Positions 1 through 14,868 of a stretch of 64,000 nucleotides of DNA are shown here, piece by piece. Source of the stretch: Escherichia coli (GTDB lineage Bacteria; Pseudomonadota; Gammaproteobacteria; Enterobacterales; Enterobacteriaceae). The position numbers and the translations under genes are program-made. The notes under the pieces were generated by a model, which ran no database searches, was not told the DNA's origin, and worked only from the letters and a program-made list of their open reading frames with translations. Numbering within the stretch: position 1 is the first letter of the stretch; the number at the start of each line of letters is the position of its first letter. The stretch lies in assembly GCF_013315695.1 (NCBI RefSeq), contig NZ_CP054353.1. The stretch is one strand, 5' to 3'.

Positions 1-11
1 GAATCCCCCCG

Positions 12-1067
12 TTAACCAATTTTGACGGTAACAAATTTGCGAATATCTGCCGGAACCGGCTGCGGTGCGCTGTGCGTCTGCACGTACTCAATCGCCGGAT
101 CGCCGTCCTCAATCCAGTTTTTCGGGTAAAACATGTTTTGCGTTGCGCCCGTTCTTACCGCTTCCTGTTCCAGGATCGCACCATAGGCCACCAGCCCTTT
201 ATTGTTGGTGTTGCCCAGGACCAGCAAATCAGGCTCAAGGAAATATTTTTCTGTGCCGTCGCTGTCAGTGTATTTGCCGGAATAGACGATAAGGGCCAGA
301 TCACCAAGATAGCCTTTAAAGCTCACCACTTCGCCCAGGTTTTTACATGCCAGCTCTGCGGCGGATTCTGAACCACGGGAGAGATCGTACAGTTCACGGA
401 ATTTTTTAAAGCTGCGTAACATGCGCCATACATCAACGCCCATAATCATGACGTTTGCGGGGCAACCTGCCTGATCTGCGTATAGCTCAATGTCATAGAT
501 TGGGTCGTGTATGTCTTTGTCCTGCTCTGACCATTTTTTACCGTCGGCCTGCTCTATGATGTTTTTTTCCGGTATCTTCCAGTCGATTTCATAGCGCTCT
601 ATGCCTTCGCCCTCAATGATGTTTTTTCCGGTCGTTACCGCATTTACCGCCAGCCATTCCACGCGCGCTTTAATGGCGTTTATCTGGCGGCGCATGTTGC
701 CAGTAATCAGGCGCATACGGCGGTAGGTAGGGTCGTTAAGCTGTGCTGGATCTTCTCCAGCCATGCGCATTATTGTTTTTAATGGATCGATTTCGTGTTT
801 TGGCTTCATGTAGCCAGGGCGAATAATGCTTGTTTCGTACCCTTTATCGCGCTGAACCTGGCTACCCACCATAGGCGAACAAAACGCCGACATAGTGACT
901 TCTTCAATATCCAGGTTATCTAACATGATGTCCTGTGTGTTGAATGTCGCCACGTTCGGGAAAAACAGCGCGGTAAACAGCGGACTGAATTTAAATTCCG
1001 CAATATCCTCGCGATTCAGGTACGCAAAAAGCTGGTTAGTGTTAAGTGCTATTGCTTTTACTGTCAT
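12..1067 (-). CDS. Major capsid protein, lambda gpE family
   Basis: 351-aa ORF; translation shares many conserved blocks with lambda E as I recall it (GY.KPKHE, DP.YRR.R, RSFK, RGS.SE, VYSG.Y, VLGNT, YPKNW..GDPA, QSAP). Start overlaps stop of upstream gene (TAATG); GGGGGTGA RBS. Confidence 0.8.
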   Translation of the reverse strand: MTVKAIALNTNQLFAYLNREDIAEFKFSPLFTALFFPNVATFNTQDIMLDNLDIEEVTMSAFCSPMVGSQVQRDKGYETSIIRPGYMKPKHEIDPLKTIMRMAGEDPAQLNDPTYRRMRLITGNMRRQINAIKARVEWLAVNAVTTGKNIIEGEGIERYEIDWKIPEKNIIEQADGKKWSEQDKDIHDPIYDIELYADQAGCPANVMIMGVDVWRMLRSFKKFRELYDLSRGSESAAELACKNLGEVVSFKGYLGDLALIVYSGKYTDSDGTEKYFLEPDLLVLGNTNNKGLVAYGAILEQEAVRTGATQNMFYPKNWIEDGDPAIEYVQTHSAPQPVPADIRKFVTVKIG

Positions 1068-1273
1068 TATTCACCCCCGTGAACCTGATTCATACCCAGC
1101 GCCGCGCGTAAATAGGCGCGTACCTGCCAGCCTGTTGACGGCTCAACCATCGCCAGCGGATCAAGTCCTGCCGCAATGCCTGCTTTTACGTTCTGCTGGT
1201 GGCGTTCCTTGAGCGCCTTCACGATGTCGGGGCTTATGTACACCGAAACACCGCCTTTTTTCTCTTCAGCCAT
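1067..1273 (-). CDS. Hypothetical small protein (68 aa), first gene of capsid operon
   Basis: ORF with AAGAGGA RBS ~10 nt upstream; translationally coupled to capsid gene; no recognisable family. Confidence 0.45.
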   Translation of the reverse strand: MAEEKKGGVSVYISPDIVKALKERHQQNVKAGIAAGLDPLAMVEPSTGWQVRAYLRAALGMNQVHGGE

Positions 1274-1304
1274 AGTAAGAAATTCCTCTTTGACTTAAAA
1301 AATC

Positions 1305-1358
1305 ATAACTGGATGTTCATCCAGTTATGATTATAATCATGATTGCATTTTGTGCAAT
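1305..1358 (-). promoter_or_regulatory. Promoter/operator of capsid operon: three adjacent palindromes overlapping sigma70-like -35/-10
   Basis: Perfect 24-bp palindrome ATAACTGGATG-TT-CATCCAGTTAT (1305-1328); 14-bp palindrome ATGATTATAATCAT (1327-1340) containing TATAAT on minus strand; ATTGCA-N5-TGCAAT (1342-1358) containing TTGCAC -35 at 16-bp spacing. Confidence 0.5.
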
Positions 1359-1436
1359 GATATTGAGTTGCGTTGCAAATTATGAAATTATTATCCCGAT
1401 CATGTGTGTCAGTGCACCAAAAAACCTCATATGCAA

Positions 1437-1510
1437 AAGCCCGATAAGCCACCTCTGACCTTATCGGGCTTTTTTTGGGCGCAAAAAAGCCGGATTGCTC
1501 CGGCTGTGTG
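1437..1510 (-). terminator. Two tandem hairpin terminators downstream of PerC-like gene
   Basis: GCCCGATAAG...CTTATCGGGC hairpin flanked by A-run and T-run (bidirectional), then AGCCGG-attgct-CCGGCT hairpin followed by T-run on minus strand. Confidence 0.5.
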
Positions 1511-1527
1511 GTGTGGTTCTGGTATTC

Positions 1528-1776
1528 CTACTCTGCTAATTTGCTCAGCCCCATGTCTGCGTAAGTGCGATTTACTGCATTTCTCAGGTCTGCATAGTTC
1601 TCCGTTGGCGGCTCCGGTGGCCTCTGTGCCTTCCTGGAACATTCCAGCCGTCGCATCGTGATGTGATGCCGTTCCTTGTCTGTCTCCACCAGCATCATGA
1701 CTTCACCCCATCGCGCCGCCGCCCTCCGGTAAAATCCTTTCGCTTCGAGTTCTTCCGCTATGCGGTCATGTACCAT
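1528..1776 (-). CDS. PerC-like transcriptional regulator (82 aa)
   Basis: Start chosen at internal ATG with GAGGGGGTGA RBS 10 nt after SSB stop; motif AEELEAKGFYRRAAARW resembles the PerC/Pch family signature from memory; needs profile search. Confidence 0.45.
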   Translation of the reverse strand: MVHDRIAEELEAKGFYRRAAARWGEVMMLVETDKERHHITMRRLECSRKAQRPPEPPTENYADLRNAVNRTYADMGLSKLAE

Positions 1777-1786
1777 CGTCACCCCC

Positions 1787-2197
1787 TCAGAACGGAATAT
1801 CATCACCGTAAGGGTCATCGCCTCCCGCTGGTGGCTGATTACCCTGTGCGCCTGTGGTTTTGCGTCTGTTCCCGCCAGGACGTGCCGCACGGGCACTGAT
1901 TACGCTGTCTGCAATAACCTGATAACCCTGACGCGTCTCCCCGTTCTGTCCGGTCCACTGGCTTACCTGCATCGTGCCGGATACGCTGGCAACGTCGCCT
2001 TTTTGATGTTTAGCCAGGAAGTCGGCCTGCTTACCAAATGCGATGACCGATAGCCATAACGTCGCCTGTCCGTCCTGTGCCTGACTGCATGGCAGTGATA
2101 CCGCCATACGCGCCAGCGTCATCGGTGTGCCCTTGCTGGTCTGTTTTACCTGCGGGTCGTCCACCAGCCGACCGTAAGCCGCTATCTGTGCTGTCAT
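1787..2197 (-). CDS. ssb: Single-stranded DNA-binding protein (SSB)
   Basis: 136-aa ORF, Gly/Pro/Gln-rich C-terminal linker ending in acidic tip ...GDDIPF, the hallmark SSB C-terminus; GGAGAGGTGG RBS; ATGA overlap with upstream gene. Confidence 0.8.
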   Translation of the reverse strand: MTAQIAAYGRLVDDPQVKQTSKGTPMTLARMAVSLPCSQAQDGQATLWLSVIAFGKQADFLAKHQKGDVASVSGTMQVSQWTGQNGETRQGYQVIADSVISARAARPGGNRRKTTGAQGNQPPAGGDDPYGDDIPF

Positions 2198-2445
2198 GAT
2201 TCCACCTCTCCGGTTTTAACGTTGATGGTTGTTACCTGTTCCGCTTCGGCAATCTCCCGTTCTGTCAGCGTGGCAAAGTTTGCCGCCGCCGTGGTCATGA
2301 ATGCGCTTATCAGGTCGGGATGTTCCTTCGCGTATCCTTCCCGCGTGTGGCGGTCTATCGTTCTGATTGCCACCTTTAAGGTGTGCTCAGTCATGTCTAA
2401 CGCTTTATATTTTGGCTCTGTTCTGTCTCTGCGTGTTCTGGTCAT
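2194..2445 (-). CDS. Hypothetical protein (83 aa) between ori and ssb
   Basis: ORF with GAGGTGG RBS before ATG at 2445 (ORF track extends to TTG at 2457); coupled to ssb by ATGA overlap; no recognised family. Confidence 0.45.
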   Translation of the reverse strand: MTRTRRDRTEPKYKALDMTEHTLKVAIRTIDRHTREGYAKEHPDLISAFMTTAAANFATLTEREIAEAEQVTTINVKTGEVES

Positions 2446-2477
2446 TTGCCACCTCAATTTATATATATAGAAACATG

Positions 2478-2795
2478 TGCGGGTTATGCGGGTTATTGGG
2501 TTATCTTAGCGTGCTAACCATTTTTTATCCTTTTATATCAGTATTTTGCAAAACACCCTGTTTATTATTTGCCCACCACGTAACCCGCAAAACGCTCAAA
2601 ATAACCCGCAAACGGGGTTTTTTCTGCGGGTTACGCATGACTGTCCGGTGTTACTTCAGTTATTCGCCTGCGGGTTATAATCGTGCTTTTGCGGGTTATA
2701 AATGCCCTTTTGCGGGTTACGTGCGGGTTATTGGTTTCCTTTATATTCATGCACTTAATACACTTATACACAGGATAACCCGCATAACCCGCAAT
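2478..2795. repeat. Iteron array / replication origin of the island
   Basis: About 11 copies of the 9-mer GCGGGTTA(T/C) in both orientations with AT-rich spacers, including tandem pairs, directly downstream of the primase-helicase gene. Confidence 0.7.
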
Positions 2796-2815
2796 TTTTT
2801 TCCTCACACAGGGGA

Positions 2816-4939
2816 TTAATCTTCATCATCAGGCTGGAACATCAGCACGTAAAAAACATGCTGCTTACCCCCAATCTTGCCCAGCGCCTTTTTTTTGTAT
2901 CGGCGATCGCTTCCCTTCTCCAGCATTCCGGCAGCATCCAGGGCACGCGCAAAATGCGCCGGATTAAATCCCTTCGCTATCTCACTCTCAAACACGTGCG
3001 GGAACGTGTAATAGCGCATCTCGTCATCTTCGTTGCGAATGCTCCCTTTTCTGTATCCGGCAAGCTCTTTAATCGGTAAATCACGCTCATCTGTATTGGG
3101 GTACGGAAGGTAGCGGCTAAACCCAAACGACGACAAAAACGCCTCAGCCTGTTCAACCATCTGTTTAAATTCCCTGTTACCCGTGCCGAACTCCTTCACC
3201 CAGGCATTAAAGTTATGCTGTATCGCGTCGCGGCATTCCTGCACGACCCAGCCAGTTACATGACCGGAAAGCACAAGCGCGGCCTCCAGTATGGCGAAAC
3301 GTTCACCCACGCGGTGGACCTGCTCGCCGTAGCTCTCCGGTATCAGGTTGCGCCACCGTTCGCGGCATTCCCTTACCGTATCCTTTGCCTCCTGCTGGTG
3401 GCCTGCCAGCCATTTAACCCACTCACGACCCGCCGCCCCGTGATTTGCTGTCCAGGCATCCTTTAACGCGTCAGCATGTTCCTTACCGTTGCTGTATTCG
3501 TGAAATTTCGTGGCTTTTTCCATCGGAACGTTAAGCAGTCGGACAAGCTGCCCCGCCTTAACTTTTATCCCCTCACTTTTGAGGAATGTCTCAACGTCCA
3601 TTTCTCCGGTGCTGATTGCCACCGTTCGCCAGTGTTTGATCTCCCTGTTGCCGCCATCCTTCGCCCCCTGCAATTTCCCTGAACCGTTAAACAGCGTATA
3701 AGCAGACGTTGACACTTCCCGCGCATTTCCGGCCTGGCCTATCTCATCCAGTGGTAAAAGCCCGTCATTATGGGCCTCGGCCTCATTGGCAATACCTAAC
3801 GCCGTGCCGTACCAGGTCAGCCGCTGCGCGTCCGGCTCTCCCCATAAACTTGATGCGATGTTCTGCGTGGTGGTCTTACCTGCCGATGACTGTTCGAAAA
3901 GATGCACCCCGAAGCCGTCAGCACCCACAAGGCCAATTAAAGGCGCTGCCAGTGACGTTGCCACACCCAGCATCATTGAGGCATTACCGCCAGCCAGCCG
4001 CGCCACACTCTCGCGCCAGCCCTCCGCCGTACCCGCCACGGAATAACCGTTAATCGCGGCGCTTTTTCCGGTAAACAGGATCGGTTTTTCAGAATCACCA
4101 ATGATCGAACCGTCCGGCATGATGTACGCGCCAAAATGCCAGCCCGTTGTTGTGCTTAACTGCCATTCCTCATGGCTTCCGCTTAACTGCATCCAGTCCG
4201 CCAGGATTGCCCTGTATTTGCCGTTGGTTGTCACGTTCAGCCCGTGATCTTTAAGTAACCGCCAGCCGTCACGGTCGCCGATACCACCACACGGGATCGC
4301 CATTGTGATGACTTCATGATTTGCTAATTTTTTCCAGCGCATGACGCGGTAATGCTCTTTACCGATCGTCCCCGTTCCCAGTAGTTCAAGCGGAGAACAT
4401 AACCACGTCTCAGGCCGGATAATTTCGCCTGACTGCTTATCCACTTTGGGCGTTACCCAGAAAACACCATCGGCGCGACTTTCAACGCGTGGCTTTAATT
4501 CGTCATCGCTATGGCTTCCGGTATCTTTTTTCTTTACCGGAAACTCAATAACCAGACCATCAGAAAGATTCTGCCGCTCACGGGCCAGATATTCGCGCCA
4601 GTTCTCCACCTCCTGACCGTGCATTCCATCAGGGTAAAAATTTGCATCCTGTACGCCTGCCGCCGCCAGCTTCTGACCAATCGCCTTGATCATTACTGGC
4701 TCAAGATGTCCGGCCCTGAATATGCGTACTGATTTTCGGCCTTCCGGCACAATTTGCAGCTTATCCAGTTCGGCAAGTTGTTGCTCTCCAAGCCAGACAG
4801 GAGGCACGTTATCGCCAGCCAGTCGCCCGTCCTGTTCCTGCCACTGTTTCGCATGTGCCCAGGCATCACTACCCGCAAAAATGATGACTTCCGTCATTTT
4901 GTCACGTGGCTGGTGTTTTAAATTTGGCGCTTTTTTCAT
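2816..4939 (-). CDS. Primase-helicase (P4 alpha-like, D5/SF3-type)
   Basis: ~707-aa ORF; Walker A-like SSAGKTTT; size and position (next to iteron ori, downstream of int/alpA) typical of satellite replication proteins. Likely start ATG at 4939 with GGAGAG RBS, overlapping upstream stop (ATGA); ORF track extends to 4954. Confidence 0.75.
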   Translation of the reverse strand: MKKAPNLKHQPRDKMTEVIIFAGSDAWAHAKQWQEQDGRLAGDNVPPVWLGEQQLAELDKLQIVPEGRKSVRIFRAGHLEPVMIKAIGQKLAAAGVQDANFYPDGMHGQEVENWREYLARERQNLSDGLVIEFPVKKKDTGSHSDDELKPRVESRADGVFWVTPKVDKQSGEIIRPETWLCSPLELLGTGTIGKEHYRVMRWKKLANHEVITMAIPCGGIGDRDGWRLLKDHGLNVTTNGKYRAILADWMQLSGSHEEWQLSTTTGWHFGAYIMPDGSIIGDSEKPILFTGKSAAINGYSVAGTAEGWRESVARLAGGNASMMLGVATSLAAPLIGLVGADGFGVHLFEQSSAGKTTTQNIASSLWGEPDAQRLTWYGTALGIANEAEAHNDGLLPLDEIGQAGNAREVSTSAYTLFNGSGKLQGAKDGGNREIKHWRTVAISTGEMDVETFLKSEGIKVKAGQLVRLLNVPMEKATKFHEYSNGKEHADALKDAWTANHGAAGREWVKWLAGHQQEAKDTVRECRERWRNLIPESYGEQVHRVGERFAILEAALVLSGHVTGWVVQECRDAIQHNFNAWVKEFGTGNREFKQMVEQAEAFLSSFGFSRYLPYPNTDERDLPIKELAGYRKGSIRNEDDEMRYYTFPHVFESEIAKGFNPAHFARALDAAGMLEKGSDRRYKKKALGKIGGKQHVFYVLMFQPDDED

Positions 4940-5235
4940 TTCTGCTCTCTCCACGCGGCAATCATGTTTTTCAGTTCCTGTAGTTTTTTATCCACATCCA
5001 CACGTGACACATGGTTATTTCTGGAAGTCGGGATTTCCCGCCTGAATCTGCTAATAAAGATCTCCACGTTCAGCGAACTATGAAATGAATAGCCATCACG
5101 AATAAAATACACACGGTCAAACATCAGTTCTTTTACCGTTACTCTGTTGCCGTTCTTATCCAGATAAATAGCGCCGGGGATAATTTTGGGGTGTGCATAA
5201 CCGCTGGCAGTCAAGCCAGATAAATATGTTCTCAT
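4936..5235 (-). CDS. Hypothetical protein (99 aa), low-GC cargo
   Basis: ORF translationally coupled to primase gene (ATGA); local GC ~30-38% versus ~50% for neighbours; no recognised domain. Confidence 0.5.
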   Translation of the reverse strand: MRTYLSGLTASGYAHPKIIPGAIYLDKNGNRVTVKELMFDRVYFIRDGYSFHSSLNVEIFISRFRREIPTSRNNHVSRVDVDKKLQELKNMIAAWREQK

Positions 5236-5241
5236 GATTAT

Positions 5242-5562
5242 TTATCCCCGATTTGAATCAGTATTCGCTTTCTTTATAGCATTTAATGCATTTGTGGCAT
5301 TTTCAATGGTGCACCGTAACGAAATATCAAACTGCCCAAGCATTGCCAGTAACAAACCGATATTACCCATATCAATGCGCATGGCCTTTTCGTCATATTC
5401 CTCATTTTCTGACGCATACCACATCAGGCTACCAATTGACGCAATACCCATTGATATATTGTCAGTAGCCCCATCCGCAGCGGAATAAACTTTTTTAGCA
5501 ATATCATGCTCACAGTTAAAATGCGGATTAATCAGGTACTGGTAATTGGTCATGTCAGGCAT
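5242..5562 (-). CDS. Hypothetical protein (106 aa), low-GC cargo
   Basis: ORF starting ATGCCTGA-overlapped with upstream 67-aa gene; low GC; no recognised domain. Confidence 0.5.
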   Translation of the reverse strand: MPDMTNYQYLINPHFNCEHDIAKKVYSAADGATDNISMGIASIGSLMWYASENEEYDEKAMRIDMGNIGLLLAMLGQFDISLRCTIENATNALNAIKKANTDSNRG

Positions 5563-5758
5563 GGCACACCCCCTGACGAATACGGGCGGCGAATACCATC
5601 ACGCAGCCAGCCGGGGATTGCTGGCGTGCTTCCTGTTCGCTGCTGGCCTCAATGGTAATCACGCGCGGTTGTGCCGTGCTCAGGGCGATAAAACGCCAGA
5701 TGTATTTATTCAGGTTGTGCGAGTCCCGCCCTTGCGGGTGTGTGGTATGATTTAACAT
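5555..5758 (-). CDS. Small conserved satellite protein (67 aa), possibly Icd-like
   Basis: 3' portion of a long spurious ORF; ATG at 5758 preceded by GAGG; native-like GC; YIWRF...FAARIR pattern vaguely matches Icd-like annotations from memory (unverified). Confidence 0.4.
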   Translation of the reverse strand: MLNHTTHPQGRDSHNLNKYIWRFIALSTAQPRVITIEASSEQEARQQSPAGCVMVFAARIRQGVCHA

Positions 5759-5839
5759 AGCTACCTCGATACTGTTGCTATCGTTGGTTGTTAGACGCCC
5801 TGCATGTGTTGCGAGCACTGCGGGGCGTTGCTCTTTCAG

Positions 5840-5885
5840 GTGTATTTCACCTTTGCTTTTTAATTTACTCACTGGTGAAATACAC
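5840..5885. promoter_or_regulatory. Perfect 12-bp inverted repeat in divergent promoter region (candidate operator)
   Basis: GTGTATTTCACC (5840-5851) and GGTGAAATACAC (5874-5885) separated by a 22-nt loop, followed by T-rich tract; lies between divergently oriented 67-aa gene and RHH gene. Confidence 0.45.
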
Positions 5886-5951
5886 TTCAAGCCTTTTTTT
5901 ATCATTTTTTTTGCGTATACTGACATACACCAATTTTTAGGAGATCCAGAA

Positions 5952-6131
5952 ATGGCAACTGGTGCAAAGAACGCAAAATCACAAATGACAACTGTCAGAA
6001 TCCCACATGAAGTAATGGATGATATTGAGCAACTTAAAGAACCTGGCGAAAGTACCGCTGGTTTTTTAGTTACTGCCGCAAAAGGCGAGATCAAACGCCG
6101 CCAGCGCCGCAAGGCCAAAGAATCAGAATAA
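5952..6131 (+). CDS. Ribbon-helix-helix-like small DNA-binding protein (59 aa), candidate repressor
   Basis: ATG at 5952 preceded by AGGAGAT RBS; N-terminal region (TTVRIPHEVMDDIEQLK) has RHH/CopG-like character; basic C-terminal tail. Confidence 0.45.
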   Translation: MATGAKNAKSQMTTVRIPHEVMDDIEQLKEPGESTAGFLVTAAKGEIKRRQRRKAKESE

Positions 6132-6188
6132 TCACTATCAGCGCCGTGGCGTGAGGTACTCCGGCGCATTGCTTTACAGGTCAGTACT

Positions 6189-6398
6189 ATGAGCAAAAAA
6201 CACCGATCAGCAGATGAGATTTTTGCAGAACAACGAAGATTGCTTTTGCAAAGTATCATTTCACGCCAGCAAGAGAAGGCGCGAGCTAAACAAATGCCAC
6301 CAAATACAGAACCAGCGCCTACAAGATTTGCGCTTGATGATTTTCTCGATAAACACCCCAGGGTAATGAAAGCAAACAAAAACCGCCCACCAGCCTGA
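6189..6398 (+). CDS. Hypothetical protein (69 aa)
   Basis: ORF downstream of RHH gene on same strand, followed by a strong terminator; weak RBS; no recognised family. Confidence 0.35.
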   Translation: MSKKHRSADEIFAEQRRLLLQSIISRQQEKARAKQMPPNTEPAPTRFALDDFLDKHPRVMKANKNRPPA

Positions 6399-6441
6399 TA
6401 GCGGCTATCATCCCCGTGCTTATGTTTAGTGTTTCCAAACT

Positions 6442-6469
6442 GGCGACCTCCCAAGGTCGCCTTTTTTTT
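6442..6469 (+). terminator. Rho-independent terminator
   Basis: GGCGACCT-ccca-AGGTCGCC hairpin followed by T8. Confidence 0.65.
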
Positions 6470-6488
6470 ATGTGCCATTGTCACCACC

Positions 6489-6785
6489 TCAAGCGGCCTT
6501 GCCTGAATTAATGCGTTCGCGGTTTTTGACCCACGCCACAACCTCAGACTTAACCCAGCCAACAGAACGACCGCCGAGACTGATACGGGAGGGGAAGCGG
6601 CCCTGCTTTTCCATCTCGTAACGAGTTGTGCGGCAAACGCCTGTTAGCTCTCTGCATTCTTTTTCGCGGATTACGCGATCTTCATTTATTTCACGCATAC
6701 AAAAACCTACATAAAAATTACGTATATAAACTTTTCTCTTAGCTGTAGATATATGAGATCGGATATTACTTAGATTCTTTTTCAC
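6489..6785 (-). CDS. alpA: AlpA/Vis-family phage transcriptional regulator / excisionase-like
   Basis: C-terminal part matches AlpA-type HTH pattern (ECRELTGVCRTTRYEMEKQGRFP...GGRSVGWVKSEVVAWV). Start uncertain: GTG at 6785 or ATG at 6698. Confidence 0.6.
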   Translation of the reverse strand: MKKNLSNIRSHISTAKRKVYIRNFYVGFCMREINEDRVIREKECRELTGVCRTTRYEMEKQGRFPSRISLGGRSVGWVKSEVVAWVKNRERINSGKAA

Positions 6786-7107
6786 CTCTTAAATTAAAAA
6801 CACAACCATGCTAAAGGCTTTGTTCGCTAAGGTTCGTAGAAGCTCGTTAGTGTTTAAAATCGTGTCACGAGTTTTTAAGCGACGCAACAAAAAATGTCGT
6901 TATTTGGCATGACACCTGAATTACCTCATTAAAAACAAATAGATAAACCATCAGGTGTTGGAACAATCAAGAAACAGAGAATAAGAACTAAGAAGAAGAC
7001 ATTTCAAATTTTTTCAATACTTGACACATATAAATCGTCGATATTTGCCGATATTCGACGATTTATTTTAGAGGGCCATTTTTCGCAAGAAAAACAGCCG
7101 TAATTTG

Positions 7108-8346
7108 TCAAGAATTTTGGGAGTAAATTCGCGGGGTCATAACAACGATTTTTTCATCATTGTTCTGGAGAAGCTCGAGACGCTCAACCCATAGATTAAG
7201 AGCGTCACGTTTTGCATCGAGATAACGGGAGTGATTATAGACTCGTTGCATTCCTGGCAACTGGTGCGCGGTTAGCTGCTCCACTACATGAGGATCCACG
7301 CCTAAATCGTTCAGCATCGTTGTAAACGTGTGCCGGATGTCGTGCAACGTCCAGGGGGCTTGATTAATGCGTCTGTGTGCCGTTCTTCCGTACTCTGATA
7401 CAGATGATTGCCCTTTCAGTTCTCCGAGTAATAAGCCCGTGTGTCGGTTCTGCTCCACCAGCTTCGTTACGAACGGCAAGATCGCTTCCGGTATTGGCCT
7501 GAATATTGCTACCTTCGTTTTGCTGTGTTCTTTCGGCACAGTCCAGAGCATTTCTTTAAAATCCCATTCCTGGACCTCAGAGCGTCTTAGCTCAGTGGTA
7601 CGGCATCCGAAGACAATCAGGAGGCGAATCAGGGCGCTGTAGTACGGTGTGTAAATTTTTTCATCCAGGGCGCGTAGTAATTCCCCAAGCTCCTTGTTTG
7701 TTAGTACGCGCTCGCTTATTTCTGCTTTTTTCCCAACATCACCTACAACCATATCATCTAGAACGTTGGTAATTGCGTAGCGTCGTTTGCGGCAGTACTT
7801 AAGCGCCTGCTTGCATACCTGTAACAAAAATCCTGCTGATACCGGATTACGCATAGCAAGCTGATCAAAACAGGTCAGCCAGTGGCGTAGCTCGCATTTT
7901 TCCAGCGGCATAGCACCAATATGGCTGATTATGTGTGTATTGATCCGGCTTTTCAGAGATTCGTAATCTGTGCGCTTTTCCTTCGCGTACGATTCAAGCC
8001 AGTAAGTGAGCGCTTCCTTAACCGTAACAGGTGATAACGCTTCCTGTACGGTGTGATTAAGCTCATGGCGTGGATTTTTACCCTCAGCAAGCCAGGCGCG
8101 ACACTGCGACGCTTTTTCCCTGGCTGCTTTCAGGCTCAAATCTGGATAATTTCCCAGCCTCAGACGTTCAGGGGCTACCTTCCTGCCTGTTCCGGCCCTG
8201 TAAGTGAAATACCAGGTTAACAGGCCATTGGTTGAATGCCTTACGCTAAGGTTGCCACCATCATTAAAAAAGGTGTTTTTTGTGGTTGGTGATCCGCTTA
8301 ATTTTCGTAAAAGAGTGTCGCTAAGTCTATGAATTGCCCTGCTCAT
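7108..8346 (-). CDS. int: Tyrosine-type site-specific integrase
   Basis: 412-aa ORF; C-terminal catalytic region with HDIRHT and ...VYNHSRY (R-H-R-Y family pattern); located at island edge next to host gene. Confidence 0.85.
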   Translation of the reverse strand: MSRAIHRLSDTLLRKLSGSPTTKNTFFNDGGNLSVRHSTNGLLTWYFTYRAGTGRKVAPERLRLGNYPDLSLKAAREKASQCRAWLAEGKNPRHELNHTVQEALSPVTVKEALTYWLESYAKEKRTDYESLKSRINTHIISHIGAMPLEKCELRHWLTCFDQLAMRNPVSAGFLLQVCKQALKYCRKRRYAITNVLDDMVVGDVGKKAEISERVLTNKELGELLRALDEKIYTPYYSALIRLLIVFGCRTTELRRSEVQEWDFKEMLWTVPKEHSKTKVAIFRPIPEAILPFVTKLVEQNRHTGLLLGELKGQSSVSEYGRTAHRRINQAPWTLHDIRHTFTTMLNDLGVDPHVVEQLTAHQLPGMQRVYNHSRYLDAKRDALNLWVERLELLQNNDEKIVVMTPRIYSQNS

Positions 8347-8401
8347 GTTTCGAATTTCCGGTCATCAAAATTAACTACACCATTGACTACACCGAGCATC
8401 G

Positions 8402-8434
8402 TACAAGGGCGAACTGTGACGAACAAGGGCGAAC
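8402..8434. repeat. Direct repeats (ACAAGGGCGAAC x2) in int-proximal attachment region
   Basis: Two copies of a 12-mer 8 bp apart, plus CGAACAC repeats nearby, between int start and cspD; candidate integrase arm-type sites. Confidence 0.3.
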
Positions 8435-8750
8435 AAGAAAAACGAAATTATCCTTTATAATCATAGAAATAAATGAGATACCTACACCATGACGAACACC
8501 CACGAACACTAACTGATAAATAACTATCATCTATCGTTGGCATCAGCGACATCTGTCACATTCCTGTCAATAGCGTTAACTGCTTCAAATTTTTGATTCA
8601 TACCTGCCCCCTGGCCCCTGTCAAATGCTTGACGGCTCGCCCTAATTCTCTAAATTGTATTTCTAGAGTTGGCGAGGTTTTGAACAGCCCCCTCTCTGAC
8701 CCCGGTTTATTCCATCTTACTTGTATAAGATTTGCGAAGGATGTCGAAGC

Positions 8751-8975
8751 ATGGAAAAGGGTACTGTTAAGTGGTTCAACAATGCCAAAGGGTTTGGTTT
8801 CATCTGCCCTGAAGGCGGCGGCGAAGATATTTTCGCTCATTATTCCACCATTCAGATGGATGGTTACAGAACGCTAAAAGCTGGACAATCCGTTCAGTTT
8901 GATGTCCACCAGGGGCCAAAAGGCAATCACGCCAGTGTTATTGTGCCCGTCGAAGTAGAAGCGGCAGTCGCATAG
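8751..8975 (+). CDS. cspD: Stationary-phase cold-shock-domain protein CspD
   Basis: 74-aa translation MEKGTVKWFNNAKGFGFI... recognised as CspD; ORF track begins upstream at an earlier in-frame ATG. Confidence 0.9.
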   Translation: MEKGTVKWFNNAKGFGFICPEGGGEDIFAHYSTIQMDGYRTLKAGQSVQFDVHQGPKGNHASVIVPVEVEAAVA

Positions 8976-9010
8976 CTCTTCTGTCTCATTGTGTACATCC
9001 TAAAGGCAAA

Positions 9011-9040
9011 ATGCCAGCCCGATCGGCTGGCATTTTTATC
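9011..9040. terminator. Bidirectional rho-independent terminator (cspD / macB convergent)
   Basis: ATGCCAGCC-loop-GGCTGGCAT hairpin flanked by A-run and T-run. Confidence 0.6.
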
Positions 9041-9047
9041 TCAAAAA

Positions 9048-10994
9048 TTACTCTCGTGCCAGAGCATCTACTGGATCCAGTCGTGCCGCATTTCGTGCGG
9101 GTAACCAGCCAAATAAAATCCCGGTGACCGTCGAGCAGAGAAATGCCAGCAGCAGCGCCAACGGTGAAAAACCGATCTCCCAGCCGGGTAAGAAAAGCTG
9201 CAAGGTGAAAGCAATTAACAGTGACAGTGTTATTCCCAACGCGCCACCGACCAGGCAAACCAGTACGGCTTCGATCAGGAACTGTTGCAAAACATCACTT
9301 GCTCGCGCACCTACAGCCATGCGAATGCCAATTTCCCGCGTCCGCTCGGTCACTGACACCAGCATAATATTCATTACACCAATACCGCCCACCACCAGCG
9401 AAATCACCGCCACCAGCGTCAGAAACAGTTGTAAAGTACGTGTGGTCTTTTCAACGGTTTTCAAGACGCCGTCCATGTTCCAGGTAAAGAAATCCTTCTT
9501 ACCGTGGCGCAGTGAAAGTAAACGCGTGAGTTGCTGTTCCGCCTCGGCGCTGTCAAATCCTTCTTTCACCCTGACAGTAATGGAGTTCAGCCACGACTGG
9601 CCCATAACTCGCCCGGACATCGTGCTGTAAGGTAGCCAGACACGCAGCACTTTACTGCTACCAAACATCGACTGTTTTTCTTCCGCCACACCAATGACTC
9701 TGGCGGGCATATTGCCGACCAGAATTACCTCACCAACCACATCTGCTTTATGGGGGAAAAGCTGGCGGCGAGTATTACTGTCGAGAACCACGACCTGCGC
9801 ACGACCGTTCAGCTGCTCCTGATTAAAGGTGTTCCCTTCACTGAAGGTCATGCCATAGACATTAAAATAATCGCCGCTCACGCCATTGGCACTGGCAGCC
9901 ACATCAACATTGTTATAACGCAGGTGCAGGTTTTGCGAGACGGCAGGTGTGGCTGAGGCGACCCACGGTTGTTTTTGGATGGCGATTAAGTCATCGTACT
10001 TCAGCGCCTGCTGATATTGCGGATCGTCATCGCCAAAATCTTTCCCGGGATAGACATCAATAGTATTCGTACCAATAGAACGAATATCCGCCAGCACCAT
10101 TTGTTTGGCGGCGTCGCCCACCACGACAATGGAAACCACCGACGCAATACCGATAATAATCCCCAGCATGGTCAGTAAAGTACGCATTTTATTCGCTGCC
10201 AGCGCCCGCCATGCCATCGTCAGCGCTTCGTTAAAACCGCTGACAAATTGCCGCCAGCCAGAGGCCGTGTTGACAACAGGTTCCGTCCCGCCAGCAACAT
10301 TCACTTTTTCAATGGCGGGAGGATTGCGCACAATTTCACCGTCACGAATTTCGATCACCCGCTCGGCCTGAGCAGCGACCTGCGGATCGTGGGTAACGAT
10401 AATCACCGTATGCCCGCGATCGCGCAGCTGATGCAGGATCGCCATCACCTCTTCGCCAGAATGGCTGTCCAGTGCGCCGGTTGGTTCATCGGCAAGAATT
10501 ACCTGACCGCCGTTCATCAATGCCCGCGCGATGCTGACACGCTGTTGCTGACCACCCGAAAGCTGTGCCGGATAATACTCTGTACGGTCTTCCAGCCCCA
10601 GTCGTTGCAGCAACTCCTGGGCGCGAAGCAGCCGCTGTTTCCGCTCAAGACCAGCATAGACAGCGGGTACTTCAACGTTCTGCTCGGCGGTTAAATGCGA
10701 AAGCAAATGGTAACGCTGGAAAATAAAGCCGAAATGCTCGCGGCGCAGTTGCGCCAGCGCATCGGCGTCCAGCGTGGCAACATCCTGACCGGCGACGCGA
10801 TAGGTGCCGCTGGTGGCCTTATCCAGGCAGCCGAGAATATTCATCAGGGTCGATTTACCGGAACCCGAAGCGCCAACAATCGCTACCATCTCACCGGCAT
10901 AAATATCGAGGCTGATGCCCTTCAGCACCTCAACCTGCTCATCACCGGCAGGATAGCTGCGACGAATATCCTTTAATTCGAGCAAGGGCGTCAT
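9048..10994 (-). CDS. macB: Macrolide export ABC transporter ATP-binding/permease MacB
   Basis: 648-aa ORF with N-terminal ABC ATPase motifs and C-terminal FtsX-like permease; recognised as MacB. Confidence 0.9.
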
Positions 10995-12106
10995 TGTGCA
11001 GCTCCTGGTTTGTCCTCACCAATCACCACTTCATCGCCCGCTTCCAGCCCTTTGACAATCTCAACATCGGTATCGTTACGTGCGCCAATCGTCACTTCAC
11101 GCTCCCGTGTTTCACCATTACGCAACAATTTGACTTTATAACGATTATCGCCAACCGGATCGCCTAACGCCGACAGAGGGATCGTCAGCACATTTTTCAC
11201 ATCGGTGAGCTGAATATGCACTTGCGCGGTCATATCCAGCCGCAGCAAACCATTGGGGTTGGGTACTTCAAAACGGGCGTAATAGAAAATAGCGTCGTTA
11301 ACCTTTTCCGGCGTCGGTAGCACATCCTTGATTTGCCCCTCGTAGCGCGTCAGTGGATCGCCAAGCACCGTAAACCAGGCTTTTTGCCCCGGCTTCAGGT
11401 GGATTACATCCGCTTCAGAAACCTGCGCTTTTACCAGCATGGTGCTCATATCTGCCAGCGTCAGAATGTTCGGTGCTTGTTGTGCGGCAATCACCGTCTG
11501 GCCTTGCAGAGTGGTGATTTGCGTGACTTCCCCGGCCATCGGAGCAACGATGCGGGTGTAATCGAGATTGGTTTTAGCCGTATCGAGAGAGGCCTGATTG
11601 CGCTTGATTTGCGCGTCAATGGTGCCAATTTGCGCCTGTTTCACAGCCATCTCCGTCGCGGCGGTATCGAGATCCTGCTGTGAAACCGCTTGCGTTTGTG
11701 CAAGACGTTGCTGACGGGAATACGTCACCCGCGCCAGTTTCAGCTCCGCTTCCGCCTGCTGCCGCTGCGCGCGTAGCTCCATCAGCGTTGCTTCCACCTC
11801 CTTAATCTGGTTTTCAGCCTGTTCAGGATCAATAACCCCTAAAAGCTGGTCTTTTTTTACTTTATCGCCAATCGCCACCGACAGCGTTTTCAACTGACCG
11901 CTGACCTGCGCGCCCACGTCAACCTTACGCAGCGCGTCCAGCTTTCCGGTCGCCAGCACGCTTTGCTGTAAATCACCGGGGCGCACAATCAGCGTCTGAT
12001 AAGTCGGCTCGGGTGCGTTAAGAATTCTCCATAACGTAATCAGTCCGGCGATGACTATCACCAGCGCAATAACGTAACGCTTCTTCACGGTTTTCCGCTT
12101 TTTCAT
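10991..12106 (-). CDS. macA: Macrolide export periplasmic adaptor MacA
   Basis: Membrane-fusion-protein family; ATGA overlap with macB; start set at MKKRKTVKK. Confidence 0.9.
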
Positions 12107-12220
12107 AAATATTCTGAATACTCCATATGCCAATCCGGGTCATTAACTTCAACGAAATATCAACAAAACCCTAAAATTTACGTTAGTAATCACACTATTG
12201 ATGTTTGGTTAAGATACGCA

Positions 12221-13213
12221 ATGGTGAAATCGACGTCATGTATAATCATTGATTTCATGAATATGTCGCAGCTAACTGAACGGACCTTTACGCCATCTGA
12301 ATCTCTCAGCAGCCTGTCACTTTTTCTTAGTCTGGCACGTGGACAGTGTCGGCCGGGTAAATTCTGGCATCGCCGTAGTTTTCGCCAGAAATTTTTGCTG
12401 CGCTCGTTGATTATGCCGCGTTTAAGCGTTGAGTGGATGAACGAACTTTCCCACTGGCCCAATCTCAATGTGTTGTTAACGCGCCAGCCGCGACTGCCTG
12501 TGCGTCTGCATCGCCCTTACCTTGCGGCGAATCTTAGCCGTAAGCAATTGCTGGAGGCGTTACGTTACCATTATGCGTTACTCCGCGGGTGTATGTCGGC
12601 GGAAGAATTCAGCTTATATTTGAATACCCCCGGGCTGCAACTGGCGAAGCTGGAAGGCAAAAACGGCGAGCAGTTCACGCTTGAGCTGACCATGATGATC
12701 TCAATGGATAAAGAAGGTGACAGCACAATCCTGTTCCGCAACAGCGAAGGTATTCCTCTGGCAGAGATCACGTTTACTCTGTGTGAATATCAGGGGAAAA
12801 GAACAATGTTTATTGGCGGACTGCAAGGCGCAAAATGGGAAATTCCACATCAGGAAATCCAGAATGCGACGAAAGCCTGCCACGGGCTATTTCCCAAACG
12901 CCTTGTGATGGAAGCGGCCTGTCTGTTTGCCCAACGTTTGCAGGTAGAGCAGATTATTGCCGTCAGCAATGAAACGCATATTTACCGCAGCCTGCGTTAT
13001 CGCGATAAAGAAGGCAAGATCCACGCTGATTACAACGCTTTCTGGGAATCGGTTGGCGGCGTATGTGATGCTGAACGCCATTACCGCCTTCCAGCACAGA
13101 TAGCACGAAAAGAGATTGCCGAAATCGCCAGTAAAAAACGGGCTGAATACCGTCGGCGCTATGAGATGCTCGACGCTATTCAGCCACAAATGGCCACAAT
13201 GTTTCGCGGTTAA
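12221..13213 (+). CDS. ybjX: DUF535/VirK-like protein YbjX
   Basis: ORF in conserved K-12 position between macA and ybjD; start may be internal. Confidence 0.75.
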   Translation: MVKSTSCIIIDFMNMSQLTERTFTPSESLSSLSLFLSLARGQCRPGKFWHRRSFRQKFLLRSLIMPRLSVEWMNELSHWPNLNVLLTRQPRLPVRLHRPYLAANLSRKQLLEALRYHYALLRGCMSAEEFSLYLNTPGLQLAKLEGKNGEQFTLELTMMISMDKEGDSTILFRNSEGIPLAEITFTLCEYQGKRTMFIGGLQGAKWEIPHQEIQNATKACHGLFPKRLVMEAACLFAQRLQVEQIIAVSNETHIYRSLRYRDKEGKIHADYNAFWESVGGVCDAERHYRLPAQIARKEIAEIASKKRAEYRRRYEMLDAIQPQMATMFRG

Positions 13214-14868
13214 TCCGCGCGACCGCGCGCCAGCCACAGCACGCGTGAGAACATTTTTTTCAGCAGAGTCGGTACGGAATCCACACCACGACGTCCGGCC
13301 TCCATTGCCACTTCAATGGCAAGATCGGGTTTGGAAGAGCGATGGATCGCTTTCGAGATAATTTTGCGCAGATTCATCGGTACATTTTCCGGGATTTGCG
13401 CCACGCGGTGGAACACATCGGAAAATCCCTGGCGATACATAAAATGTTCCATATCCAGCGCCGGTAACGCCGTTAAATGTTCTCGTTCGGCTTCCCGATC
13501 GTTATTCAACAGGCTGCGTACCGTAGCGGCATATTTCTTCCCTGCTTCATCGCCATCGACCAGTACATGCCATTCAATCCCCATTCGCCGGGCAAATTTC
13601 ACCAGTGGTTTTAGCCCGGACTGGGCAAATTCAATGACCTTAATCCCTTCGGCATCGAAATGGTGTCCACACTGGCGCGCCAGTTCGTTGATAACCCAGG
13701 TTTCTGTTTCCCCTTCCACCAGCAGCCAGCAGCGTGCAAACAGCGATGATGGACGATTAAAACGAATGTGGAAAGAGATGCGTCGGCTATCTTCGGTACT
13801 CAAACCACTCGGCCCCAGACGCCAGGCGGCAACGCGCGAGGACTCACGTACCAGTCGGCAAACATGCTCTACCGGCGTTAACGAAAGCAACTCTCCCGAG
13901 TTGGTAGTAGCGATGCGCTGCAATGGCAGAAGATTCAACAGATGCCAGGCAACTGAAAGCATAATGGGGTGCAAACGGGTTTCTGGATCTTCGATCAGCA
14001 ACAATGGACGGGAGTCTTTATCCAGCCGCAATGTGCCTTTTGCCTGCAATAAAGTAGCAAACAGACCGAGCAAAATAACCCGATACGAGCGCCCTCCAGG
14101 TCGGTCAATCATCCGGTTGATGATATCCAGATAGCGCCAGCTTCGTTGCTCATTGCTGGCTCGCCGCCGCATTAAACGATATCGCGCCTGTCCAGCTCCC
14201 TGCTCAGAGAAATAATGCTCAAGCAGTTGCACCATTGCGGAAAGTCCCTGACGAATCTGTCCATCAGAGAGATTTTGCGGATGTGAGGACAACTCACGGG
14301 CGAGGAAATCGAGCTGGCGCGCGGTGACTTCCACATTAGGGACATTTGGCACCGTGCCGTTACGAATACGGCGCATAAAACGGGCATCACGCAAGCGCAG
14401 CACCGGCATTAAACGCACCAGATGGCGTGCCTGATCGTTAATATCCTCGACATCAATCGGATGTCCGTCTTTATCGAGAAAACTGCGGAGTGTCATCACG
14501 CTGCCGTCTTCCGCACTCTCCCCTTCCAGACGATAAAAAATACGGTGATAGCCATCGGTGCATGGCGTCCAGCACGCTTCCAGCGGCCGATAGCGGCGAA
14601 CCCGATGTCGGCCTGGCAGCGATTCGCGGAAGGTCAAAATAATATGCAGATGATGTTCTCGCCCGTTGATATCTCCCGGCGGGAACCAGAAATCGTCGCG
14701 CTCAAAATGGTAGAGATCTGATTCTGGCGATAGCAGCAGGGTTAAGGCGTCCAGCAAGCTGGATTTACCCCACGCGTTCTCCCCAATCAGGACGTTGTTT
14801 TGTTCCAGCATCAACGACAAACGGTTGATACCGCGAAAACCCACAATTTCAACGCGCTCAAGAATCAT
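13210..14868 (-). CDS. ybjD: OLD-family ATPase/nuclease-like protein YbjD
   Basis: 552-aa ORF with N-terminal P-loop (GENAWGKSS) ATPase; K-12 synteny. Confidence 0.85.
   Translation of the reverse strand: MILERVEIVGFRGINRLSLMLEQNNVLIGENAWGKSSLLDALTLLLSPESDLYHFERDDFWFPPGDINGREHHLHIILTFRESLPGRHRVRRYRPLEACWTPCTDGYHRIFYRLEGESAEDGSVMTLRSFLDKDGHPIDVEDINDQARHLVRLMPVLRLRDARFMRRIRNGTVPNVPNVEVTARQLDFLARELSSHPQNLSDGQIRQGLSAMVQLLEHYFSEQGAGQARYRLMRRRASNEQRSWRYLDIINRMIDRPGGRSYRVILLGLFATLLQAKGTLRLDKDSRPLLLIEDPETRLHPIMLSVAWHLLNLLPLQRIATTNSGELLSLTPVEHVCRLVRESSRVAAWRLGPSGLSTEDSRRISFHIRFNRPSSLFARCWLLVEGETETWVINELARQCGHHFDAEGIKVIEFAQSGLKPLVKFARRMGIEWHVLVDGDEAGKKYAATVRSLLNNDREAEREHLTALPALDMEHFMYRQGFSDVFHRVAQIPENVPMNLRKIISKAIHRSSKPDLAIEVAMEAGRRGVDSVPTLLKKMFSRVLWLARGRAD

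Follow-up and report, generated by a model that had tools for sequence, protein, structure and literature searches.

The 64-kb stretch of Escherichia coli DNA analyzed here, referred to below as the window, opens within a mobile island, a phage-inducible chromosomal island (PICI), whose genes are read leftward and whose integrase gene (int) closes it on the right; beyond it lies the chromosomal gene cspD, followed by macB and macA (Table 1). The start codons of int and cspD are 405 bp apart, in agreement with the distance of about 400 bp given in the initial annotation of this DNA. Between the island/chromosome junction and cspD there is yljB, a small-protein gene that the initial annotation overlooked; a homolog of YljB is present in Salmonella (PMC10117436). 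A search with ARAGORN revealed no tRNA or tmRNA gene anywhere in the window, and no RNA family was matched in Rfam; according to the initial annotation, no tRNA or tmRNA gene was evident at the junction.

Table 1. Features of the island and of the adjoining chromosomal DNA (positions in the window)
Feature	Position	Strand	Evidence or remark
Island body (PICI); leftward genes int, alpA, icd-like, DUF4222, DUF927 primase, SSB, perC, capsid E	1..8513	-	ORFs, Pfam, N10 match
DUF927 primase, 712 aa	2816-4954	-	
DUF4222 gene	4936-5235	-	
AlpA-family helix-turn-helix gene	6489..6698	-	PF05930 (5.9e-16); HTH regulator annotation in relatives
Tyrosine integrase, 412 aa, with N-terminal arm-DNA-binding domain	7108..8346	-	PF00589 (1e-18), PF13356 (9e-17)
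Int-proximal att arm, island DNA, 167 bp, absent from empty sites	8347..8513	+	empty-site homology starts at 8514
Tandem 12-mers ATTAACTACACC / ATTGACTACACC	8370..8393	+	repeat search
Three CGAAC motifs (8410, 8420, 8430) with 10-bp spacing, including both 12-mers of the initial annotation	8403..8435	+	repeat search
AT-rich segment ttatcctttataatcatagaaataaatgag	8447..8476	+	arm comparison; partly conserved across att classes
Two CGAACA motifs, 10 bp apart, adjoining the core	8493..8508	+	kept in every cspD-class arm
att core identity block TGATAAATAACTATCAT	8514..8530	+	empty site TGATAGATAACTATCAT; published core ATGATAGTTAT
Island-side core site (part of identity block)	8514-8520		
Central crossover region TAACTATCA (part of identity block)	8521-8529		
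Published 11-bp core within identity block	8520-8530		
yljB, 24-codon small-protein gene	8527..8601	-	RefSeq annotation in relatives, moved to the window by offset
Two weak CRP-like sites, 29 bp apart, in native DNA	8545-8560, 8574-8589	+	motif match
cspD promoter-like site, TTGACG-16-TAAATT	8629..8656	+	promoter scan; identical at empty locus
cspD coding sequence	8751..8975	+	ORF list and annotation in relatives

The alignment to island-free E. coli, which had been proposed along with the initial annotation, gave both the core and the exact island/chromosome junction, at positions 8514-8530. Of the 5426 complete E. coli genomes, 5423 gave a match to a 1.5-kb query spanning the region, and in all but 364 of these the match started at position 8514. 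The K-12-like empty site reads ...CCACA-TGATAGATAACTATCAT-CTATCGTTGG..., the junction in the window ...CACTAAC-TGATAAATAACTATCAT-CTATCGTTGG..., and the clpS-side junction in five genomes with a complete island ...CCACA-TGATAGATAACTATCAT-TTATAACAT... Comparison of the three defines an att identity block of 17 bp with one mismatch, which in the complete islands of relatives is present in a second copy at the far end. The sixth base of the core is A in all int-proximal junctions and G in all distal junctions and empty sites; this polymorphism, the empty site and both junctions are mutually consistent in five independent islands. The A/G split indicates that the crossover would take place on the right-hand side of that base, within ATAACTATCAT, and it cannot be placed more precisely than that. 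The interval 8347-8720, initially proposed as the integration site, is thus composed of island DNA (8347-8513), the core, and DNA that is native (8531-8720, half of the interval) and common to more than 5000 E. coli genomes.

What the core overlaps is not a tRNA or tmRNA gene but the stop codon of yljB: the TGA triplet at 8527-8529 lies inside the core and is rebuilt exactly by the insertion. In species-representative genomes, the exact 21-bp attB is confined to Escherichia, one chance match aside. The initial proposal of an att site near a protein-coding gene in the cspD upstream region agrees with the literature. Fillol-Salom et al. 2018 (Table S1, PMC6092414) list the islands EcCIIHE3034 (NC_017628.1, 920272-930825, 10.5 kb) and EcCI18098 with the att core ATGATAGTTAT and the att gene cspD-clpS, and ATGATAGTTAT is the reverse complement of positions 8520-8530 of the window. 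The site is, therefore, already known and catalogued as a PICI site. It stands in a supplementary table; our literature search on PICI and cspD retrieved only papers on the CSPD chemiluminescent reagent, and that on integrase, clpS, cspD and island retrieved nothing relevant. The published entry gives the 11-bp core only, and the arms, the 17-bp block and the yljB overlap are not described there (PMC6092414).

The gene content of the island is that of a Gram-negative PICI. The Pfam scan, which covered part of the island ORFs, returned matches to PF00589, PF13356, PF05930, PF06048, PF13973, PF00436, PF06069 and PF03864, and the int, alpA, DUF4222 and DUF927 primase genes follow each other on the minus strand in the module order typical of PICIs. 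The integrase combines a catalytic domain with an N-terminal arm-binding domain (PF13356, Arm-DNA-bind_3, residues 8-95), as do heterobivalent tyrosine integrases. Its residues R249, K272, H335, R338, H361 and Y370 are invariant in seven homologs, and we take them, by their spacing as compared with lambda Int, to be the catalytic R-K-H-R-H-Y residues. Among solved structures no sequence match to the integrase was found. The AlpA-family protein is a regulator that may also serve as an excision directionality factor; in EcCICFT073, AlpA controls induction (PMC6092414).

Since the window begins inside the capsid gene and holds the island only partly, the island size and the distal junction were read from relatives. 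The closest one, in strain N10, shows 98.6% identity over 91% of the island stretch; it has 11.3 kb, lies between clpS and yljB, and continues with genes of a decoration protein and a small terminase subunit. Tail and lysis genes are absent from the closest relatives, whose sizes of 9-11.3 kb fall within the PICI range of about 8-15 kb. About 790 bp (5597-6384) do not align to the N10 island, which is otherwise 99% identical, and mark a swapped module in the regulatory region. An ORF of 335 codons with a TTG start (5555-6562, minus strand) overlaps several short genes of annotated type and is probably spurious.

The island of the window resembles EcCIIHE3034, whose locus in strain IHE3034 we examined, in the flanking genes, gene order, att core and the perC-type accessory gene (named rdgR in Fillol-Salom et al. 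2018), and the integrases of the two are 92% identical. They differ in that only 60% of the island part of the window aligns, with 85% identity, and in the primase, which has 582 aa in EcCIIHE3034 as compared to the 712 aa of the DUF927-type primase in the window; these islands are mosaic. Taken together, our results identify positions 8347-8530, with high confidence, as the integrase-proximal junction of an EcCIIHE3034-type Gram-negative PICI at the published cspD-clpS attachment site.

Among the 5426 complete E. coli genomes, attB is intact in 5058 and interrupted in 366. The int-proximal arm, at a coverage of at least 80%, was found in exactly 366 genomes, always adjoining yljB/cspD, so that every interruption in this collection appears to be due to an integrase of this type. 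The att site thus conforms to the expectation that PICIs have an att site of their own, unused by prophages: in a phage collection of 50,697 records, no integrase exceeded 47% identity to that of the window.

Several other occupants or neighbors of this site deserve mention. Strain B1W1 carries, at the same att site and with an integrase of the same type, a larger island (locus positions 1-14191) with HK97-type capsid, protease, portal, head-tail connector, HNH and large-terminase genes, the gene set known from descriptions of capsid-forming PICIs, so that two satellite types use one att site. In strain VL40, the same junction borders a decayed island in which the primase gene is broken by IS1 and IS421 (locus 7242-14181). 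Its far side abuts ybiX instead of clpS, which suggests an IS-mediated rearrangement or deletion. Strain N41 has a type I-F CRISPR array and cas1f directly beyond clpA (locus 199-706), where the other strains examined have infA/serW.

The arm between int and the core contains repeats of two kinds. One is a tandem pair, ATTRACTACACC in two copies, which was overlooked in the initial annotation. Every intact island contains exactly two copies of this pair (referred to below as the ACTACACC pair), one per arm and both in the same orientation, and the loci of 14-41 kb that were compared contain no others. The other is the CGAAC motif, present at 8410, 8420, 8430, 8493 and 8503; the spacings of 10, 10, 63 and 10 bp put all five copies roughly on one helix face. 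The cluster is unique in the window, of which no other 100-bp stretch has more than two copies. The 12-mers ACAAGGGCGAAC, which the initial annotation described as tandem candidates for arm sites, are indeed exact copies (8403-8414 and 8423-8434, the only two in the window, as compared to 0.3 expected in 64 kb) and do belong to repeated, arm-like motifs beside int. However, they are separated by an 8-bp spacer, with 20 bp from one copy to the next, and are thus not tandem, and each is part of the CGAAC array. In the arms of EcCIIHE3034 type, the corresponding positions read ACAAGGGCAAAC and ACAAGAGCGAAC, which shows that the 12-mer is not a conserved unit. The distal arm of complete islands has the same module in the same orientation, namely, the ACTACACC pair followed by three CGAACA motifs.

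From the conservation of these motifs and of the integrase domains across att classes (see below) we infer that the ACTACACC pair is a better candidate for the integrase arm-type site than the 12-mer or the CGAAC array. The AT-rich segment of the arm is a possible DNA-bending site; inspection by eye gave no convincing match to the IHF consensus in it. Two other candidates were discarded: a third copy of CTACACC (8479-8490) is not conserved in relatives, and recombination at the ACTACACC pair itself is contradicted by the empty sites, which lack the DNA that separates this pair from the core.

Arms about 76-81% identical to that of the window are present at other loci in more than 600 genomes. 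The examples of other att classes that were read are those at roxA-phoQ (roxA/ycfD-phoQ, the EcCICFT073 site) and at abgR-smrA (abgR/lysR-smrA, EcCIEC2733.1-type). Their integrases are 74-77% identical to that of the window, while their AlpA proteins are only 58-61% identical to its AlpA. The tandem ACTACACC pair is identical in both arms of these islands; the second motif is GGAACA or GAAACA instead of CGAACA, with the 10-bp spacing kept. In all three classes, attP has the form T(G/T)ATAAA, 9 bp, TTTAT(A/C)A, in which only the 9 bp differ: the centers are ATATGTCCT and ATCACGATA in these two classes vs. TAACTATCA in the cspD class, and hence the chromosomal targets are different. Within the integrase, conservation between att classes is highest in residues 26-100, which lie in the arm-binding domain (84-87%). 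Among the folded domains it is lowest in the core-binding region, residues 101-210 (65-76%), and the N-terminal 25 residues show 56-60% identity.

On the chromosomal side, the last 220 bp before the cspD start codon and the DNA that follows are unchanged, and the junction lies about 135 bp upstream of the inferred cspD start site. The boundary is beyond the promoter-like -35/-10 site and beyond the CRP-like sites (Table 1), so that no recognizable cspD control element is replaced. In this respect our results call for a change in the initial annotation, according to which the DNA upstream of the cspD promoter is replaced. The CRP-like sites have two and three mismatches to TGTGA-N6-TCACA, and such matches are no commoner across the window than expected by chance. 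If transcription starts near 8665, they are centered at -112.5 and -83.5. Uppal et al. reportedly described, in 2014, control of cspD by CRP from sites at -112.5 and -83.5, to which we presume the offsets in the window correspond, weak as the motif matches are. Altered expression of cspD is possible as a speculation, without support from the sequence.

The yljB and int genes and, at empty sites, clpS are on the same strand. Under the criteria of the promoter scan, no minus-strand promoter was found for int or yljB, and no terminator-like site was found downstream of yljB, either before clpS at the empty locus or before int. Transcription of yljB may normally read into clpS and, with the island present, into int.

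The supposition that all of 8347-8720 is native, K-12-like intergenic DNA and that the island boundary lies elsewhere would explain the almost complete identity of 8531-8720 to island-free strains, but positions 8347-8513 are absent from the 5058 empty-site genomes and always travel with the integrase, and the junction is sharp, with its core duplicated at the far end of the island. We regard this supposition as having virtually no chance of being correct. The nature of the element could be questioned as well. In favor of a P4-type satellite or a decayed cryptic prophage, the integrase is a member of the broad group in which the N-terminal domain is Arm-DNA-bind_3, AlpA was first described in a P4-like prophage, and one E. 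coli att site is common to PICIs and P4 elements (PMC6092414). Nevertheless, the content and order of genes (int, alpA, icd-like, DUF4222, primase, SSB, perC, capsid E, decoration protein, small terminase) are those of published E. coli PICIs. No sid, psu, delta or alpha primase gene of P4 is annotated in the full-length relatives and no such Pfam match was obtained among the ORFs scanned; the cspD-clpS site is listed as a PICI site, and the phage collection lacks a close integrase. The assignment of the element to P4-type satellites or decayed prophages is, thus, very improbable, and we retain its assignment to PICIs.

The roles of the two arm motifs and the effects on neighboring genes leave more room for discussion. 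The ACAAGGGCGAAC 12-mers could be the integrase arm-type sites, with the ACTACACC pair serving AlpA or another regulator. Their exact repetition is unlikely by chance, both arms have NGAACA arrays spaced at 10 bp, which may be compared with the tandem arm sites P'1-P'3 of lambda, and the variation in the N-terminal 25 residues of the integrase parallels that of CGAACA vs. GGAACA/GAAACA. On the other hand, the 12-mer as a unit is not kept in EcCIIHE3034-type arms, the highly conserved integrase residues 26-100 fit better the unchanging ACTACACC pair, and the greater divergence of AlpA fits the variable motif. We consider these roles of the two motifs possible, if somewhat doubtful, and favor the ACTACACC pair as the integrase site. 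It could also be proposed that the insertion matters mainly by rewiring its neighbors, that is, by changing cspD control, by splitting yljB from clpS-clpA, or by read-through from yljB into int. The common strand of yljB, int and clpS, the lack of terminator-like sites between them and the distance of only about 12-15 bp between the junction and the distal CRP-like site speak for it; yet all recognizable cspD promoter elements are on the native side and unchanged, and a plausible promoter, TTGTCA-18-GATAAC, is left, as judged by eye, in the 85 bp kept next to clpS. Such rewiring as the main effect of the insertion seems unlikely to us.

The organization of the junction, read as that of a PICI with the ACTACACC pair as the integrase arm site, suggests the following course of integration. 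The tyrosine integrase would recombine attP, TGATAAA-TAACTATCA-TTTATAA, with the chromosomal attB, TGATAGA-TAACTATCA-TCTATCG. Strand exchange would occur inside the shared 9-bp center, which overlaps the yljB stop codon, and yljB would stay intact. One att arm would be the 167-bp segment with its two 12-bp ACTACACC repeats, five CGAAC motifs and AT-rich stretch, and the other, beyond the window, would carry the same ACTACACC pair plus a triplet. Bridging arm and core sites, the integrase would form the recombination complex, in which its N-terminal domain, together with AlpA or host factors as an accessory component, would most likely be positioned by the arm repeats; AlpA and host bending proteins may assist the recombination. 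The ACTACACC pair may be the site of Int, and the NGAACA array that of AlpA or of the variable N-terminus of the integrase, or the reverse. As the int start is only 23 bp from the ACTACACC pair, these repeats probably also regulate int transcription, presumably by repression. The position of the crossover within the 9 bp, the pairing of proteins with repeats and the regulation of int are all deduced from the arrangement of these sites. The scheme predicts that the clpS-side junction of the island in the window would read ...CCACATGATAGATAACTATCATTTATAAC..., that the attP of the circle would read TGATAAATAACTATCATTTATAA, and that the restored attB would have G at the sixth base.

Similar features are known from lambda-type elements, KplE1 and P4, which also have a two-domain integrase, core-type inverted repeats around the overlap and repeats in both arms. 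The likeness to KplE1 and P4 extends to the int gene abutting the att arm, with recombination sites that overlap its promoter (PMC2951348). In the case of KplE1 IntS/TorI, sites of Int and of the RDF overlap the att-adjacent int promoter and int is repressed; P4 Int/Vis is cited in the same context (PMC2951348). The sites themselves show no sequence similarity to those of the island, and the target, which here is the 3' end of a 24-codon protein gene, is a tRNA gene in the case of KplE1 and P4 and gal-bio in the case of lambda.

The comparison of att classes raises the question of whether the PICIs at cspD-clpS, roxA-phoQ and abgR-smrA (at least three classes) use one recombination scaffold and differ essentially in the 9-bp center. 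They have the ACTACACC arm pair in common, as well as the 7-bp core-type inverted repeat and the spacing, and we would give this proposal an even chance.

The arm pair was also encountered in EcCIDI14 of E. coli clone D i14, where the published 26-bp 'att site core' CGGTGTAGTTAATGGTGTAGTTAATT is the ACTACACC arm pair, present once per arm. There the pair lies at locus positions 3048-3073 and 13664-13689, well inside the island ends, with further abgR-smrA-type arm DNA outside it on each side, which rules CGGTGTAGTTAATGGTGTAGTTAATT out as the crossover site. In the yejM-luxR class, the tandem 'core' of 29 bp has a similar form and may be an error of the same kind.

Since the junction is a catalogued PICI site and the insertion leaves the control region of cspD as it was, nothing at this locus gives grounds for expecting new biology. 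The by-products of the analysis concern the annotation and engineering of PICIs: a base-level att model, with a 7-9-7 core, the overlap with the yljB stop codon and the G/A marker; a two-motif arm layout that is kept across att classes; and the correction of one published att core, that of EcCIDI14. If the proposal of a shared scaffold is true, some of the published 'att cores' are really arm repeats, and target switching in this integrase clade would proceed mainly by a change of the overlap sequence.
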